This document shows, piece after piece, positions 1,813-28,793 of a stretch of DNA of 47,092 nt; position 1 is the stretch's first letter, and every line of letters starts with the position of its first letter. Source of the DNA: an uncultured Clostridium sp. (GTDB taxonomy: Bacteria > Bacillota_I > Bacilli_A > RF39 > UBA660); assembly GCA_945788325.1 (NCBI GenBank), contig CALZLL010000002.1, positions 1-47,092 of the forward strand, written 5' to 3'. Both the position numbers and the translations under genes were made by a program. The notes under the pieces were generated by a model. That model did not search any database. It worked only from the letters and a program-made list of their open reading frames with translations, and was not told where the DNA came from.

Positions 1813-3130
1813 ATGAAATAATATCATTTATTACCTCTACATCTGAAAAATGCAACTTTTTATCTCCTATTATTTGATAATCTTCATGTCCTTTACCTAA
1901 AACCATTAGTATCATATTATTATCCAATAATTCTATTCCCCTTTTAATAGCATCATATCTATCATAAATTACCTCATATTTACCACTTGCACCTTTTAAA
2001 ATATCTTTCATTATTTCTTGTTCATTTTCTTTTCTTGGATTATCATTAGTAAATATAATATAAGAAGAATATTTACAAGTTATTTTTGCCATTATTGGTC
2101 TTTTTGTTTTATCCCGGTTACCACCACAACCAACGATTGTTATTATCCCATTATTCTTTATCTTTTTAACCGTTTTTAATACTTTTTTAACCGCGTCAGG
2201 AGTATGGGCATAATCAACAAATATTACGTTATTTTTATATTTTATTTTTTGCATTCTACCTGGTGGCTCACTTAGTAAATATAATTTATCTTTAATACAA
2301 TTTACGTTATATCCTAACTTTTTAATTATGTAATATGCATATAAAAAATTATATACGTTAAACGTGCCAACTAAGGGAATATTAAAACATTTATTTATAT
2401 CATCTTTTATAATAATTTTAGTACCATTTAAATCATTAATTACCAAATTTATTTTTATATCTTTACCGATTATAAAGTTATTATTATCATTATTTATAAA
2501 TCTTTTATAACGTTTACCCTTTTTATTTAAAATACATATTTTATTATTTTTAGTCATGTGAATTATCTTTTTTTTACTTTTTATATAATCCCCCATAGTA
2601 AGATGATAATCTAAATGATCCTGAGTTATATTAGTAACTGCTATGGCATCAAATAATAATCCATGAACCCTGTCTTGTTTTAAAGCGTGAGAAGATACTT
2701 CCATAACAACTACTTTACAATTCTTATCTTTAGCATCCATTATTAAATTATATAAAATATCAATCGATGGTGTTGTGTTATCAAGTGAAATAACATTATC
2801 ATCTAAATAAAAACCAATAGTACCAATATAGGCTGTTTTAACACCAATCATGTTAAGTATTTGATATATTAAATAACAAGTTGTTGTCTTACCATTAGTT
2901 CCGGTAATTCCTATTAATTTTATATCTTTTATTTTTTCTTCATAATACTCTTTAATATAATCATAAATAGATTTAACTTGTTTTGTTTCTATATCAAACT
3001 CATCATTTGTTTCAGTAATGATTAAAGAAGCTTTATTATCTATTGCATTAGATACATACTTTTTATTTTTATCATTAACTAAAAATATATCTCCTTTCTT
3101 AATTTTATTAGAATCAATCCATAAACGCAT
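1790..3130 (-). CDS. murE: UDP-N-acetylmuramoyl-tripeptide synthetase (Mur ligase, MurE-type)
   Basis: GITGTNGKTTT P-loop, DYAHTPDA, GGNRDKTKRP and a GKGHEDYQIIG C-terminal motif. The N-terminus DSNKIKKGDIFLV resembles the MurE DSRkvkpGdlFvA pattern. Confidence 0.85.
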   Translation of the reverse strand: MRLWIDSNKIKKGDIFLVNDKNKKYVSNAIDNKASLIITETNDEFDIETKQVKSIYDYIKEYYEEKIKDIKLIGITGTNGKTTTCYLIYQILNMIGVKTAYIGTIGFYLDDNVISLDNTTPSIDILYNLIMDAKDKNCKVVVMEVSSHALKQDRVHGLLFDAIAVTNITQDHLDYHLTMGDYIKSKKKIIHMTKNNKICILNKKGKRYKRFINNDNNNFIIGKDIKINLVINDLNGTKIIIKDDINKCFNIPLVGTFNVYNFLYAYYIIKKLGYNVNCIKDKLYLLSEPPGRMQKIKYKNNVIFVDYAHTPDAVKKVLKTVKKIKNNGIITIVGCGGNRDKTKRPIMAKITCKYSSYIIFTNDNPRKENEQEIMKDILKGASGKYEVIYDRYDAIKRGIELLDNNMILMVLGKGHEDYQIIGDKKLHFSDVEVINDIISYKKTLFH

Positions 3131-3182
3131 TTTATCACCTTCTATATTTATTTATGATAAATATCTAAAAAGGCAACAAAAA

Positions 3183-3205
3183 AGATAAATAATTATTATT
3201 TATCT
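3183..3205 (-). terminator. AT-rich hairpin plus T-run immediately after the retron RT stop
   Basis: AGATAAATAA-tta-TTATTTATCT is a 10-bp perfect stem. On the minus strand it is followed by TTTTTTGTTGCCTTTTT. It separates the RT from murE. Confidence 0.45.
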
Positions 3206-3216
3206 CGTGTAAATAT

Positions 3217-4155
3217 TTATATTTTTTTTATTTGGTTTTTATATTTGATAAACTCCACATTATCTTTTTCTATTTGTAAAACAAAATTTATCTTTCCCTG
3301 TAATTCCCTTAAATATAATTCTTTATCTTTTGCTCTTATTCTTTTTAAATGACTATTTATACCATATTTTTTTATATAATACATTTCTTGTCTTATTTTT
3401 CTTTTATAACTTTTTCTTACGTTTGTTTTTCTATTAACCACAATACCAGTTACTTGTTGTCTAGTTGATTGTGTTACTACTTTTATTTTTTTCTTATTTA
3501 ATCTAAAACCATTTTTATACAATAATTTATTAACCAAACTAATAATTTCCTTTATATTGAAATCTCCAGAAAAAGTCATATCATCAGAATATCTAGTATA
3601 ACTAATATCCTTACTTTTACAAAAGGATCCCACAATTTCATCAAAATTTCTTAAACATAGGTTTGATATAAATCCACTAGTAGGTGCTCCTTGTGGCAAA
3701 TGATTATTATACACACATAAATTAGTAAGCAATATACCTAATTTCTTAGGATATAACGTTTCATTAAAACAAGTTTTATATACCATGTTGAAATTAACGT
3801 TATCAAAGAAGTTTTCTATATCAAGTTTTAAGATTATCTTTTTATTAATATGGGGCTTTGCATTATCTTTAATTGAACTATTTTTTAAATAGGCGCAAGC
3901 ATGATTAGAAATAATTTTTTCTTCTAAAACATTTTTAAGTATTTTTCTTTGTATGCTTTTTAAATTCTTACTAGGCGCATTTAAATATCTTAAACCACCA
4001 TTTTTTTTATGAATAATTATCTCTTCATAATTAGCATCTATGTCATTACTAATGCCATATAATATTTTATTTATCATTCTTATATTAGTAGTATTAACCA
4101 AATTAAAAGATGATAATAGTTCATTATATTTATCATCAGTTAAATATTTCCACAT
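3217..4155 (-). CDS. Retron-type reverse transcriptase (the ORF track extends to a TTG at 4170; ATG at 4155 preferred)
   Basis: Retron-diagnostic motifs line up with Ec86 RT: NAKPHINKKIILKLDIENFF (NAxxH...D..FF), LPQGAPTS, YTRYSDDMTFS (YxDD) and RQQVTGIVVN (the VTG motif). It is only about 312 aa, with no maturase, endonuclease or other fused domain. RBS GGGAG lies 8 nt before the ATG at 4155. Confidence 0.9.
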   Translation of the reverse strand: MWKYLTDDKYNELLSSFNLVNTTNIRMINKILYGISNDIDANYEEIIIHKKNGGLRYLNAPSKNLKSIQRKILKNVLEEKIISNHACAYLKNSSIKDNAKPHINKKIILKLDIENFFDNVNFNMVYKTCFNETLYPKKLGILLTNLCVYNNHLPQGAPTSGFISNLCLRNFDEIVGSFCKSKDISYTRYSDDMTFSGDFNIKEIISLVNKLLYKNGFRLNKKKIKVVTQSTRQQVTGIVVNRKTNVRKSYKRKIRQEMYYIKKYGINSHLKRIRAKDKELYLRELQGKINFVLQIEKDNVEFIKYKNQIKKI

Positions 4156-4171
4156 ATTATCATCTCCCAAT

Positions 4172-4330
4172 AGCAGGTACTATAAATATACTTAGTAAGT
4201 GAAATGTAACTGTTAATACGTGAAGCGTATAATATTACATTGAACGATTAAGTACAATAGATAATTTAGAGTTTCTTTTTTTAGCGACTCGCTAAAACGA
4301 TTTTTTATTAAAAATCAAACGCTACCTGCT
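4172..4330 (-). ncRNA. Retron msr-msd non-coding RNA
   Basis: 8-bp inverted repeats AGCAGGTA (4172-4179) and TACCTGCT (4323-4330) bound the element (a1/a2). On the minus strand the 5' repeat is followed by GCG, a candidate branching G. Two msr hairpins follow: GATTTTT-aata-AAAAATC and TTTTAGCG-agt-CGCTAAAA. A long interrupted msd hairpin comes next (TACTTA/TAAGTA, AATGTAA/TTACATT, ATACG-cttca-CGTAT). The element ends 16 nt before the RT start. Confidence 0.75.
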
Positions 4331-4337
4331 TAAATAT

Positions 4338-4345
4338 ATTATACA
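4338..4345 (-). promoter_or_regulatory. -10 element (TG-TATAAT) placed to start transcription at the msr 5' repeat
   Basis: The minus strand reads ATGTATAATATATTTAAGCAGGTAGCG, with TATAAT 7-8 nt upstream of the a2 repeat. The -35 is weak (TTTTAC at 17 nt). Confidence 0.4.
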
Positions 4346-4367
4346 TTTTTTTATTCAAAAGTAAAAT

Positions 4368-5543
4368 TTATTTTGATCTTACATTAATATCATCTATACA
4401 TTCATCGTACCTTAATACATGTTCTACATAATCAGGATCACCTGGGTAACTTGAATTTCTATAATCAAGCCATCCTAAATCATTAGATTTTAATACTTCA
4501 TCTTTAGTTTTACCAGTAGCATAACAATAAGAATTAATAATCTTATTAACACTACCAGGCCCCATATTATAGGTTTGGATAGCCGCTATTTTATTACCTT
4601 GCATTTGATTTAAATAATTTTGATAAATAGCACAACCCACTTTTATATTAAAATTAATATCTCTTAATTTATCTAAGGTTATATGAATAGTTTCATAACT
4701 TTCAGTTTCATAGTTATAAACTTTAATATCATTTCCATTCCATACGTCAACTTGCACTTGCATAAGTCCAATTGCACCACCAGAATCAACTTCATTTGAA
4801 TGTACTCCTCTTTCTTGGGTAGCTATTGCAAGCATAATAGATGGATCAAGGCCATACATATTAGCGTATTTTTCTATAATATCATAGTATAAATCTTTAG
4901 TTTTTTCAGCTTTAGTAGTATCCGTTTCATCCTTTATGCCAAGCATATTATACATGGTTGTCTGTTCTTTTTTAACGTCTAAGTTTTGGGTTTTGATATC
5001 AGTTTCTTCTTCATCTTTTTTTATTTCTTTTTTAATATATTCATTTTCTAATGTATCTACATAGTCTTTTTCTAAATCTTCTTTATTATCATCTACATAA
5101 ATAGCATTATCATAAGATGGTTTAACTGGTGTAATTATTGTTTTTACATCTTTATTATTAGCCTTAAATGCTGCAAAGCTAGCTACTGTAGAAATTGCTA
5201 TAACACCTGCTAAAACTTTAGCTCTCCATTTAGCTTCTTTATCTAATTTATATTTCTTTAATTTATCAAATATAAAATCAAATCTACTATCCCCTTGAAA
5301 ATAATAATAATCTTTTAAGGTGATTTTTAATTCTCCTACAAAGCACTCTAAATTATCACCATCAACCCATATATTATGAACTTTTGCCCTATTAAATTCA
5401 TTAAGTAATCTATTTAAATCCTTTTTTGAAACAATGCTATATTTTAAAAGGTTTTTATTATTTAAAACACTATCTAAACTAGCCTCTCCTTCTATAAAAG
5501 TAGCACTAGGTCCATCTATATTTCTTATTACAAGTTCACTCAT
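4368..5543 (-). CDS. Membrane-anchored lytic transglycosylase (SLT domain) with an unknown ~110-aa cytoplasmic N-domain
   Basis: One TM helix (VLAGVIAISTVASFAAFKA) is followed by an acidic, K/E-rich linker. The C-terminal SLT motifs are AIATQERG (catalytic Glu), GAIGLMQV and QTYNMGPG. RBS GGTGA. The gene ends 37 nt before the retron ncRNA, with no intervening hairpin. Confidence 0.75.
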   Translation of the reverse strand: MSELVIRNIDGPSATFIEGEASLDSVLNNKNLLKYSIVSKKDLNRLLNEFNRAKVHNIWVDGDNLECFVGELKITLKDYYYFQGDSRFDFIFDKLKKYKLDKEAKWRAKVLAGVIAISTVASFAAFKANNKDVKTIITPVKPSYDNAIYVDDNKEDLEKDYVDTLENEYIKKEIKKDEEETDIKTQNLDVKKEQTTMYNMLGIKDETDTTKAEKTKDLYYDIIEKYANMYGLDPSIMLAIATQERGVHSNEVDSGGAIGLMQVQVDVWNGNDIKVYNYETESYETIHITLDKLRDINFNIKVGCAIYQNYLNQMQGNKIAAIQTYNMGPGSVNKIINSYCYATGKTKDEVLKSNDLGWLDYRNSSYPGDPDYVEHVLRYDECIDDINVRSK

Positions 5544-5752
5544 ATTATCACCATATATAGTATAACAAATTATTTATTATCATAGTGTAAATATATATAA
5601 ACATTTACACTTTTTTATTATTATAAATGTAAACAAAAACTAGTTTATTCTGTTTTTATTATGAAAAGTACGCAAATCAATCTCATACTCAAACTCACTT
5701 GTTAAATAGATGTTAAAACTTTCTTATACTAGTGTCAACTCTTTATTATATT

Positions 5753-6238
5753 TCATGCATTTTTTTCTAATAATTTAAAGTTACAACATCTAGATTTTAT
5801 TTTTTTATTTAGTCTACCATTTATATAATCATTATATAATTTTTTTGATTTCCTATATAACTTTTCATCATTTCGTATAAGCCAATAAATTTGTTCCTTC
5901 AAAAGTTTATTATATTTATAACCAAAAACATCGTTAATTTTATTAAACTCAATCAATTTATAGTTTGGTTCTAAAACAGGTATCATATTATTAAAATTAA
6001 CCACACCTAATTCACCATCATCTAATTTTAAAAAATCAACCATGTTACGCATTATTTTATGTTTTTCTTTAGGGCTCGATAATGGTGCAAAATACTTGAT
6101 GGTATCTATTTCAAATAAAACACCAATAAAAGGCCTATTTTATTTCTTAGAAAAATTATAAGGAACCCTCTTATCAAATTCTCTTAAATAATCACAATAT
6201 TTACTATCAATAATAACTAATTTTAATTTTGTATTCAT
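5753..6238 (-). pseudogene. toxN: ToxN/AbiQ-family type III toxin (endoribonuclease) interrupted by an in-frame TAA at codon 33
   Basis: My translation from ATG 6238 (RBS AAAGAGGTG) reads MNTKLKLVIIDSKYCDYLREFDKRVPYNFSKK*NRPFIGVLFEIDTIKYFAPLSSPKEKHKIMRNMVDF... and continues in the same frame into the 99-aa track ORF. Three motifs match ToxN/AbiQ: FIGV..EI...Y.APLSSPK.KH, GVVNFNNMIPV and C-terminal CCNFKLLEK. The stop lies at 6140-6142. Confidence 0.8.
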
Positions 6239-6284
6239 TATAACACCTCTTTCTTTTTCAATACATTTGTTCGTTATATATAGT

Positions 6285-6321
6285 AAAATAAAAAGCTAGC
6301 ATAAATTTAATTACTGCTAGC
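6285..6321 (-). terminator. Intrinsic terminator between the antitoxin repeats and toxN
   Basis: The minus strand reads GCTAGCA-gtaattaaattta-TGCTAGC followed by TTTTTATTTT. This is the same position as the attenuating terminator in ToxIN loci. Confidence 0.65.
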
Positions 6322-6345
6322 AACTTTTTTAAGTCCCAATTTAAT

Positions 6346-6431
6346 GGCTGGGTTCACCGCTTTATTAAGTTCCTATTATGGCCGGAATCGCCGCTTTATT
6401 AAGTTCCTATTATGGCCGGAATCGCCGCTTT
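6346..6431 (-). ncRNA. toxI: ToxI/antiQ-like antitoxin RNA: about 2.5 tandem copies of a 34-nt repeat
   Basis: Copy 1 is 6346-6379 (ggctgggttcaccgctttattaagttcctattat). Copy 2 is 6380-6413 (ggccggaatcgccgctttattaagttcctattat). A partial copy spans 6414-6431. A degenerate partial copy (aagtcccaatttaat) lies just before copy 1. The repeats are directly adjacent with no spacers, upstream of and co-oriented with toxN. Confidence 0.75.
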
Positions 6432-6434
6432 TTC

Positions 6435-6458
6435 TAGTGTTAATTTAAATTAACACTA
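6435..6458. repeat. 24-nt perfect palindrome in the toxI leader
   Basis: TAGTGTTAATTT/AAATTAACACTA lies between the predicted promoter and the repeat array. No adjacent U-run on the minus strand, so it is not a terminator. Confidence 0.5.
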
Positions 6459-6504
6459 TATTATATGCAAATAAATTACATAACATAATTTCTTATGTAC
6501 CTAA

Positions 6505-8668: not shown

Positions 8669-9826
8669 TTATCTTAACTTTATTTTTGATAAAAACGATT
8701 CTTCTGTTGCTTTTACTATTTCTTTATCATCAGTATAAATAAAAGCACCACTATTTAATAATTTATTAACGTTTTTCTCATCTAACAATCCATAAGAATA
8801 ATACATATATTCTTCTTCTATATAACTTTTTAAATTATTAATATCAACATTTCTCCAATTAGAATCTACGTAATTTAAAAGACCTATTTTTATTTTATTA
8901 ATTTCAGTATTTTTACTCAATGCATTTTTTTGACCATCTAACCAATTATATAAATTATTATCTTTATCTTTATAAACAAAACTTTCTAAAACAAATAAAT
9001 CTCCATAGGTATCTTTATATTCTTTTAACATTAAGTAATATTTCTTCCAATTATTATTTTTAATCATATCTAAATTATATACTTTATCTTTTCTTATTAC
9101 TACTTCCCATACCATTTCTATTTCGTTTAATAATTCTATTTGTTTTTGGTTTAGCTTACTATTATTCTTTCCTTTATAGGCTAGTCTTTGTTTACTAATC
9201 CAACTTCCTAACTTTACTTTGTTTCCATCTTTACCCTTACAAACATAATTAGCAGGTATAAGTAGATTACCATGTTCTTCATAGTACTTTTTGGCTAATT
9301 CGTAATTTTTTAACCAATTATTTGGTATTATTTCTTTGTTATTTTTAACTTTCCATACCATTTCTATTTCGTTTAATAAATCCATTTGTTTTTGATTTAA
9401 CTTATTATTATTCTTTCCTTTATAGGCTTGCCTTTGGGTATTAATCCAATTACCTAATTTTACTTCGTTTCCTTCTTCATCTTTCCAAACATAAGTAGTA
9501 GGTATAAGTAAATTGCCATGTTCTTCATAATACTTTTTCGCTAATTCATAATTTTTAAGCCAGTTATTTGGTATTAATTCTTCATTATTTTTAACTTCCC
9601 ATACCATTTCTATTTCGTTTAATAATTCTATTTGTTTTTGACTTAATTTACTACTTCCATATCCTTTATAGGCTTGCCTTTGTCCACTTATCCAAATTCC
9701 TAATTTTACTTTGTTTCCATCTTCGTCCTTACAAACATAGTTTTGGGGTATAAGTAAATTGCCATATTCTTCATAGTACTTTTTGGCTAATTCATAATTT
9801 TTTAACCATCTTTCTTCGTTAGTCAT
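8669..9826 (-). CDS. Protein built from helicase-associated (HA) domain repeats
   Basis: Three near-identical 82-aa units (WLKNYELAKKYYEEHGNLLIP..YV.KD..GN.VKLG.WI..QRQAYKG....KL.QKQ..LLNEIEMVWE) plus one degenerate fourth unit. This pattern matches the HA domain. No helicase core is present. Confidence 0.65.
   Translation of the reverse strand: MTNEERWLKNYELAKKYYEEYGNLLIPQNYVCKDEDGNKVKLGIWISGQRQAYKGYGSSKLSQKQIELLNEIEMVWEVKNNEELIPNNWLKNYELAKKYYEEHGNLLIPTTYVWKDEEGNEVKLGNWINTQRQAYKGKNNNKLNQKQMDLLNEIEMVWKVKNNKEIIPNNWLKNYELAKKYYEEHGNLLIPANYVCKGKDGNKVKLGSWISKQRLAYKGKNNSKLNQKQIELLNEIEMVWEVVIRKDKVYNLDMIKNNNWKKYYLMLKEYKDTYGDLFVLESFVYKDKDNNLYNWLDGQKNALSKNTEINKIKIGLLNYVDSNWRNVDINNLKSYIEEEYMYYSYGLLDEKNVNKLLNSGAFIYTDDKEIVKATEESFLSKIKLR
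9086..9826 (-). repeat. Intragenic tandem DNA repeat, 3 x 246 nt at roughly 90 percent identity by eye
   Basis: For example, ccataccatttctatttcgtttaataa recurs near 9108, 9354 and 9600. The period equals the 82-aa protein repeat. Confidence 0.7.
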
Positions 9827-28331: not shown

Positions 28332-28793
28332 TTAACGTTGTTTTGTCAAATCATATTTTAGTTTTTTAACACAATCTTCAAAGTCTCCTTCTACTATGTT
28401 AACAGATTCTGCTATCATTAAATTTATTGGTAATCCAAAATCTTCTACGTTATAACCTTCATCATCTTTTTTTCCTATTTTACTTATCATATCTAAATCA
28501 CTATCTATGTACCCATATAATATTTTATTTTTAGCATATCCATATCCTAATTCAAAAGCGGTACCATCATCCATTGTTTGTCCTCTAAAATTATTTAAGT
28601 TAGCGACTAATATATCACTTTCGTTTATAAGACTTATATTACCATTAAATATATCTTTAGAACTTGATAACTTATTATCTAATGGATATAGTCCACAAAA
28701 ACCATATATGGAACATATTTTTTTATATTCTTCACCAATTTTTAATGCATCATCACTAAATACATCATATCCTGCAATATATATTTTTTTCAT
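28332..28793 (-). CDS. Nucleoside 2-deoxyribosyltransferase family protein
   Basis: KIYIAGYDVF at the N-terminus, and DDGTAFELGYGYAKNK (the catalytic Glu region). The 153-aa size is typical of salvage NDT enzymes. Confidence 0.7.
   Translation of the reverse strand: MKKIYIAGYDVFSDDALKIGEEYKKICSIYGFCGLYPLDNKLSSSKDIFNGNISLINESDILVANLNNFRGQTMDDGTAFELGYGYAKNKILYGYIDSDLDMISKIGKKDDEGYNVEDFGLPINLMIAESVNIVEGDFEDCVKKLKYDLTKQR

Follow-up and report, generated by a model that had tools for sequence, protein, structure and literature searches.

Characterised defence retrons are tripartite and comprise a non-coding RNA (ncRNA), a reverse transcriptase (RT) and an effector. Stand-alone (msr-msd)-RT cassettes, called "orphan retrons", have also been described in the branch of RT clade 2 that includes Ec107, and unknown trans effectors or a different mechanism were both left possible for them (Mestre et al. 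2020, PMC7736814). The Ec107 branch shares a node with RTs linked to phosphoribosyltransferases (PRTases), and it was suggested to have lost the PRTase-like partner of the sister clade (PMC7736814). Ec107 itself was left out of the defence assays of Millman et al. (doi 10.1101/2020.06.21.156273). In the 2026 SPIRE survey preprint, clade2_Ec107like is the second most abundant group (n=192), with 93% Bacillota, 91% host-associated members and no recurrent accessory module, and the Ec107_like RNA model is the one most often detected (doi 10.64898/2026.05.14.725207). Here we analyzed a stretch of 47,092 nucleotides (contig CALZLL010000002.1, uncultured Clostridium sp.; the whole stretch is called the window below), which contains a retron on the minus strand between an SLT-domain protein gene and murE. 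An earlier note on this DNA had proposed a complete retron with an Ec86-like RT.

In this locus, an RT of the Ec107 lineage is preceded by a covarying msr-msd region homologous to the one at the Ec107 site of E. coli, no effector is found in cis, and the cassette is inherited vertically under selection. We consider it quite likely that the element is a stand-alone, Ec107-like retron (clade 2 of Mestre et al.) which works by the mechanism and the trans-acting function proposed below. For comparison, 70 genomic loci with relatives of the RT were retrieved, and single loci are given by L numbers. The parts of the window element are as follows.

4365-4338, minus strand: promoter-like site with -35 TTTACT (4365-4360), a 16-nt spacer and -10 TATAAT (4343-4338), 10 of 12 consensus matches, putative in function.
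4172-4330, minus strand: msr-msd unit of 159 nt, directly upstream of the RT gene.
4330-4323, minus strand: a1 arm AGCAGGTA of the inverted repeat; its helix (helix 1) covaries, with 6 of 7 pairs changed on both sides.
4322, minus strand: predicted branching G, directly after a1, kept in at least 90% of 28 homologues.
4317-4298, minus strand: msr hairpin 1, variable, present in the computed fold, 62-86% paired.
4297-4279, minus strand: msr hairpin 2, with the nearly invariant core GCGAGUCGC, 94.6% paired, 7 of 8 pairs covarying.
4181-4270, minus strand: probable msd template region, its extent estimated by alignment to the E. coli Ec107-site msr-msd and from the 107-nt length in the name.
4256-4187, minus strand: long interrupted msd hairpin, present in the computed fold, with helices 7 and 8 covarying.
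4180 and 4179-4172, minus strand: conserved G, then the a2 arm TACCTGCT, which pairs with a1 and covaries with it.
4168-4164, minus strand: ribosome-binding site GGGAG of the RT gene.
3217-4155, minus strand: open reading frame (ORF) of the retron RT, Ec107-like (clade 2), ATG at 4155, stop at 3219-3217, 312 aa.
3206-3178, minus strand: putative intrinsic terminator between the RT gene and murE, an AT-rich hairpin of 11 pairs (3206-3182) followed by a U-run.

All the motifs that the earlier note had listed for the 312-aa ORF can be read in its translation: NAKPH (NAxxH), DIENFF (D..FF), LPQGAPTS, YTRYSDD and the VTG motif in RQQVTGIVVN. Pfam identified RVT_1 alone and no extra domain. The top PADLOC profile is RT_Ec107-like, matched over its full length (1.2e-120, 400 bits), followed by RT_III-A (345 bits) and by RT_II-A, the Ec86 type (238 bits), and the remaining matches are all retron RTs. 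This profile discriminates between related RTs, because the Bacteroidota RT in L064 has RT_III-A and not RT_Ec107-like as its best profile. In NCBIfam, retron_St85_RT reached 219 bits, slightly under its cut-off. In the PDB, the Ec86 RT ranks first (E 9e-33), ahead of Ec67, Ec83 and Ec78, and all top matches are retron RTs.

The slmA-pyrE junction, which we take from the older literature to be the Ec107 site, is interrupted in 382 of 5425 complete E. coli genomes. One interrupted genome was examined (L074; NZ_CP023899.1, 1524634-1530026), in which the insert codes for a 319-aa retron RT adjoining pyrE, named in RefSeq just "reverse transcriptase family protein"; 319 aa is also what we take, from the same literature, to be the length of the Ec107 RT. 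We named this element Ec107 by its genomic position and RT size, and not by a deposited sequence of Ec107. According to Mestre et al. 2020, Ec107 adjoins the orotate phosphoribosyltransferase gene (PMC7736814). The window RT shares 43% identity with the RT of this E. coli site over residues 32-312 (E 2e-86), the E. coli RT scores 437 bits on the RT_Ec107-like profile, and it nests within the clade of the window RT in a neighbour-joining tree that has no bootstrap support. Judged by the profile, by the identity to the E. coli Ec107-site RT and by the homologous ncRNA described below, the window RT is a member of the Ec107-like clade-2 lineage. The label "Ec86-like" is only loosely true, because these three lines point to Ec107, and Ec86 is only the nearest solved structure.

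Upstream of the RT, the earlier note had described 159 nt bounded by 8-bp inverted repeats, with a G after the 5' repeat, two msr hairpins and a long interrupted msd hairpin, and it had asked for folding of 4172-4330 and a covariation analysis in homologous loci. The a1/a2 stem, both msr hairpins and the long interrupted msd hairpin are all contained in the computed fold of 4165-4340, which has an energy of -37.4 kcal/mol (shuffle mean -25.8, z = -3.4), and none of 200 shuffles is as stable. The 8-bp inverted repeat alone is not significant in such AT-rich DNA, and an unrelated 9-bp repeat is found in the same 342 nt. The arms a1 and a2 are nevertheless real, since a perfect inverted repeat of 7-12 bp occurs at the same place, with differing sequences, in at least 25 of the 70 loci, and the two arms covary. 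For example, homologous loci have the pairs AAGCAATA/TATTGCTT, AAGCAGTA/TACTGCTT, AAGCAGCA/TGCTGCTT, GAGCAATG/CATTGCTC and TAAACAAATA/TATTTGTTTA, plus others. The G directly after a1 is G4322, and its role in priming is a prediction drawn from retron biochemistry.

A covariance model was trained on 27 homologous RNAs, from gut Bacillota only. Within the 47-kb window it has a single match, at 4168-4334 of the minus strand with 114.6 bits, and each of 34 loci (8 of them outside the training set) has one match, always just upstream of the RT and on the same strand. In the alignment of 35 sequences, 77.5% of cells are paired, compared with 61.4% after shuffling and 37-45% when the partners are slid. 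Of its 45 base pairs, 39 are changed on both sides, and covariation is seen in the a1/a2 stem, in msr hairpin 2 and in both msd helices. These figures are somewhat inflated, as the alignment was fitted to the model. Two observations are free of model fitting, namely the variation of a1/a2 among loci and the covariation of hairpin 2 in a plain MAFFT alignment. On the plain alignment, RNAalifold recovered only msr hairpin 2 and the base of the msd stem. It missed a1/a2 because the a1 columns are misaligned between lineages, which was mended by realignment with the covariance model.

The model built from gut Bacillota also detected the msr-msd at the E. coli Ec107 site (51 bits, E 4e-8). The ncRNAs of the window and of E. 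coli both have a1-G-CG, the GCGAGUCGC hairpin and UCAuUGUAC...GUACAuUU at the base of the msd stem, and the context at the branching G, GCAAUA-G-CG, is the same in both. In the alignment, the stretch from hairpin 2 to a2 is 16 nt shorter in the window than in E. coli. Since the name Ec107 stands for a multicopy single-stranded DNA (msDNA) of 107 nt, the msDNA of the window element would be about 90 nt long.

A retron reading would fail if the RT were of the group II intron, diversity-generating retroelement (DGR), abortive infection (Abi) or unknown-group/defence-associated (UG/DRT) type, with the upstream hairpins arising by chance. The one observation in that direction is that an Rfam scan of 2500-6500 (E up to 10) gave no family match, and this null carries no information, as the covarying ncRNA itself is matched by none of the Rfam families. 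On the other side, the competing NCBIfam profiles, group II maturase (62 bits) and Drt2 (52 bits), stay far below the 400 bits of the retron profile, the top structural matches are all retron RTs, and the covarying ncRNA has a homologue at the E. coli Ec107 site. We regard this explanation as having a negligible probability. By its profile and structural matches, the RT falls outside the group II intron, DGR, Abi and UG/DRT types.

Several different housekeeping contexts were found for the cassette, and they form the following groups.

Context A: MetRS ... RT - MurE - Clp-like AAA, in the window, L001, L016, L063 and the closer relatives L076-L079.
Context B: ParA - ParB - MscS - AbgT - RT - YchF - BI-1, in 11 loci.
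Context C: XerD - PyrG - RT - ZIP, in 6 loci.
Context D: LepA - RT - Lon, in 3 loci.

Inside each context group, the RT co-diverges with its flanking genes. By pairwise NG86 estimates, the synonymous divergence (dS) of the RT is 0.85 between L043 and L044 (flanks 0.84-1.11), 1.03 between L004 and L006 (flanks 1.04-1.20) and 1.23 between L010 and L015 (flanks 1.17-1.38), while omega is 0.10-0.24 for the RT and 0.00-0.18 for the flanking genes. In the neighbour-joining tree, again without bootstrap support, each of the four contexts corresponds to a monophyletic group. In phage and plasmid collections no RT relative with more than 60% identity was found; the best listed is about 41% identical, so there is no sign of carriage on mobile elements. 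A metagenome scan with MurE for site occupancy in close relatives returned one locus, which is irrelevant. The closest genomic relatives of the window are gut metagenome-assembled genomes (MAGs) labelled uncultured Mollicutes or Bacilli and Candidatus Aphodocola. Judged from its gene content the host is a walled low-GC member of Bacillota, because the window encodes peptidoglycan and sporulation genes. As the dS of the RT matches that of its flanks and omega is 0.10-0.24, these results indicate that the cassette is a long-resident, vertically inherited chromosomal locus under purifying selection, and not a mobile defence-island gene.

The same data bear on whether the cassette might be a decaying relic, which lost a PRTase-type effector and is now functionless. 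The loss suggested for the Ec107 branch by Mestre et al. (PMC7736814) would agree with such a history, as would the frameshifts in some related RTs. However, the window RT ORF is intact with all catalytic and retron-specific motifs, its omega is low at divergences where dS is about 1, and the ncRNA helices are maintained by compensatory changes. Moreover, the Ec107-like lineage is abundant and widespread, also in the SPIRE preprint. Such a fixed locus, which diverges together with its housekeeping neighbours and is under purifying selection, speaks for a real benefit to the host, and a functionless relic is very improbable.

To figure out what accompanies the retron, we summarized the genes around it. 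Downstream, after 86 nt, lies murE (436 bits, against a curated cut-off of 373). Upstream on the same strand, after a gap of 38 nt, lies the gene for a 391-aa SLT-domain protein (4368-5543). With flanking gaps of only 86 and 38 nt, there is no room for an extra ORF. All ORFs within 4.5 kb of the RT were clustered for the 70 loci; none of the gene families accompanies the RT from one context to another, and in about 60 related loci no effector is conserved beside it. Housekeeping functions account for the other 33 window proteins that were scanned (HrcA-GrpE-DnaK-DnaJ, LepA, MutL, MiaA, tRNA synthetases, the sporulation proteins Gpr and SpoIIP, and two-component systems). PADLOC detected no retron effector and no defence island among these 33, the sole matches being two weak ones to the candidate families PDC-M51A and PDC-M43B (about 1e-10). 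No PRTase-like or winged-helix gene accompanies the RT, either in the surroundings of the window element or in related loci, and the window has no nucleoside 2-deoxyribosyltransferase (NDT) gene adjoining the RT.

An ordinary tripartite defence retron would need one of the neighbours as effector, that is, the adjacent SLT protein (4368-5543), the ToxN gene, murE or the Clp-like AAA ATPase (758-1774). For this explanation one can cite that the SLT gene is only 38 nt from the retron on the same strand and is also upstream of the RT in L016, L078 and L079, and that a ToxN/AbiQ defence-type gene lies 1.4 kb upstream of the retron. However, no neighbour gene is linked to the RT outside a narrow lineage: in L001 and L076 the RT has no adjacent SLT gene, and in contexts B, C and D its neighbours are entirely different. 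In addition, murE is a genuine housekeeping equivalog, toxN has a premature stop in the window and a ToxI-like repeat array of its own, and the SLT, MurE and AAA proteins have no PADLOC match. The SLT, ToxN, MurE and AAA neighbours were thus rejected as effectors for not being conserved with the RT across loci, and we give this explanation very little weight. The claim that the retron is "complete", with every part of a functional retron visible, therefore needs a distinction: it holds under the classical msr-msd-RT definition, but there is no effector in cis, and the cassette is complete for making msDNA and not as a defence system as now understood.

Several observations on the neighbourhood are recorded here in their own right. 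The SLT protein (4368-5543, minus strand) ends in an SLT lytic transglycosylase domain, and its N-terminal half is uncharacterised; homologues between metG and the retron are found in L002, L016, L078 and L079 and are missing in L001 and L076. Between metG and the RT there is a variable slot, filled by ToxN, HMGL-like or SLT genes depending on the relative, and L076-L079 show such variable inserts. In the window, the ToxN/AbiQ-family gene is at 5753-6237 on the minus strand (Pfam ToxN_toxin 2e-21; PADLOC AbiQ 4.7e-16). Codon 33 of this gene is an in-frame TAA; in the related contig L071, whose RT is 99% identical, the codon is GAA and the ORF of 171 aa is intact. Upstream of toxN on the same strand, a perfect tandem repeat of 34 nt x 2.2 copies (6357-6431), similar to a ToxI antitoxin RNA array, is followed by a GC-rich hairpin with a T-run. 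The gene and the repeat together look like the remnant of a type III toxin-antitoxin system. Further upstream, 8669-9826 (minus strand) codes for a 385-aa protein of repeated "helicase associated" domains (HA, PF03457; 8e-56) without a helicase domain.

NDT is the effector fold of type II-A retrons. The only NDT gene of the window is a stand-alone one at 28332-28793 on the minus strand (153 aa, PF05014, 4.5e-29). As a trans effector it was rejected: it has no PADLOC match and no DNA-binding extension, and it is 24 kb away. Because it lacks that extension and a PADLOC match, it is probably a salvage enzyme.

Just downstream of the more distant RTs from Clostridia, there are small ORFs that are mutually unrelated by phmmer. 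Pfam assigned three of them to GNATs and others to a MerR-HTH protein, an ankyrin protein and DUF3592, and several have no Pfam match. None matches a PADLOC retron effector, and they were rejected as effectors; their sole PADLOC match is that of the MerR-HTH protein of L029 to mad1 (1.2e-07). The three GNAT ORFs are located 13-72 nt downstream of the RT in distant Ec107-like loci (L008, 6961-7554; L039, 6947-7480; L045, 6963-7508), belong to different subfamilies and are unrelated by phmmer. A recurrence in 3 of about 60 loci is at most suggestive, too weak to call, and compatible with chance as GNATs are common. In L004 (6927-8244) and L005 (from 2175 onward), two tightly coupled ORFs separate the RT from the gene of the ZIP transporter. 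One, of 86 aa, comes first and has a 21-nt overlap with the RT stop, and the second codes for 354 aa with an HELFH (HExxH-like) motif. This pair has no Pfam or PADLOC match and is missing from the sister loci L006, L009 and L055; it may be a lineage-specific retron partner.

Regarding expression signals, the earlier note had placed a TG-TATAAT element 7-8 nt before the 5' repeat. The box is present and its -10 hexamer ends 7 nt before a1, but TG abuts TATAAT directly, so it is not a canonical extended -10 element (TGnTATAAT). Several homologues likewise have a TATAAT box upstream of a1. In this AT-rich region, promoter-like sites show no enrichment (9 observed, 13.7 expected). A hairpin with a T-run does follow the RT stop, as had been proposed. 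It is weak, with one G-C pair (-8.3 kcal/mol, z = -2.1), and a consensus terminator scan did not call the hairpin at 3206-3182.

On this basis, we propose a mechanism for the stand-alone retron. A single transcript would start at about 4330 from the element's own promoter (4365-4338), carry the msr-msd RNA and then the RT ORF, and terminate near 3180. Folding of this RNA would pair a1 with a2, and the RT would bind the conserved msr hairpin GCGAGUCGC. The 2'-OH of G4322 would then serve as the primer, and the msd (about 4270-4181) would be copied into branched msDNA of about 90 nt. The functional product would be the complex of RT and msDNA. We infer that it acts through a host factor encoded elsewhere, which could be an unlinked partner gated by the complex, as in tripartite retrons, or a general nucleic-acid enzyme. 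Action through such an unlinked factor is, in our view, the most likely one.

The main alternative is that the retron has been domesticated for a cellular role other than defence, such as a function of its msDNA in starvation or stationary phase, and needs no effector. In its favour, the RT is syntenic and vertical between core housekeeping genes, with dS equal to that of its flanks and purifying selection, and no close RT relatives were found on phages or plasmids. Mestre et al. raise the same possibility for vertically inherited clades, citing the starvation-induced expression of Ec107 (Herzer 1996) (PMC7736814). On the other hand, there is no direct evidence of a non-defence role, and the RT has a higher rate of evolution than housekeeping genes and in some lineages has apparently been lost or frameshifted, which is more typical of accessory or defence genes. 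To our knowledge, all retrons whose function is known are defence systems, which also speaks against this alternative. We consider it possible at a rather low probability. With the same reserve, it may tentatively be extended to Ec107-like cassettes in general, which would then be a domesticated, vertically inherited RT-msDNA module in gut Bacillota, maintained by selection and without a dedicated effector, working via a non-defence role of msDNA or via a conserved housekeeping factor of the host in trans. If true, this mode of action would differ from that of all retrons characterised so far, which sequester an effector.

Several points weigh against the stand-alone, trans-acting retron proposed here. 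The promoter and the terminator are matches at the consensus level only, and the terminator is weak. The trans partner is purely something we infer, and most genomes with orphan retrons have no homologues of known retron effectors (PMC7736814). For members from Bacillota, we found no report of msDNA production. The nonsynonymous rate of the RT is 2-4 times that of the flanking housekeeping genes. Moreover, the RT is in two frames in L011, L016 and L065, where the ncRNA is still detected (87-123 bits), and only an 87-aa remnant is left in L068. These four MAG loci suggest that the element is dispensable in some lineages, and they reflect either occasional decay or MAG assembly errors. The stand-alone retron remains our preferred explanation with these points counted. 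The element is a clean case of the question what an effector-less retron does, and, provided that synthesis of msDNA is confirmed, its compact unit of 1.2 kb could be used as a small pair of RT and ncRNA in retron-based DNA production.

Compared with known systems, the window retron resembles Ec86 (Retron-Eco1, type II-A3) in RT fold and motifs, with Ec86 as its nearest solved structure, and in the msr-msd logic. However, Ec86 has an adjacent NDT and DNA-binding effector, which the window retron has not, and its RT belongs to clade 9 of Mestre et al. (PMC7736814), whereas the window RT belongs to clade 2. Type III-A retrons, which have PRTase-like and winged-helix effectors (such as Retron-Eco11), are the sister RT group, and RT_III-A is the second profile of the window RT; in contrast to them, the window and related loci have no PRTase-like or winged-helix neighbour of the RT.

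Ec107 (Retron-Eco5 in Mestre et al. 2020) is much more similar. Both elements are minimal msr-msd-RT cassettes without an accessory gene between housekeeping genes, and their RTs (319 aa in E. coli, 312 aa in the window) have the same best PADLOC profile. They differ in insertion site (slmA/pyrE for Ec107, metG.../murE in the window) and in host, which is here a low-GC gut Bacillota MAG lineage and not a gammaproteobacterium. The GC content of the ncRNA is 28% in the window and 55% in E. coli, and the msd of the window element is the shorter one, for which an msDNA of about 90 nt is predicted in comparison with 107 nt. Of the two, only that of E. coli is an element for which msDNA has been shown experimentally.

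The window retron agrees with clade2_Ec107like of the SPIRE preprint (doi 10.64898/2026.05.14.725207) in lineage, phylum, habitat bias, lack of recurrent accessory modules and an ncRNA detectable by the Ec107_like model, and differs in nothing essential. The synteny with dS equal to that of the flanks and the omega of 0.1-0.24 come from the present analysis and were not found in the consulted passages of the preprint. In summary, the window retron is a further member of the known, recently catalogued lineage of stand-alone Ec107-like retrons.

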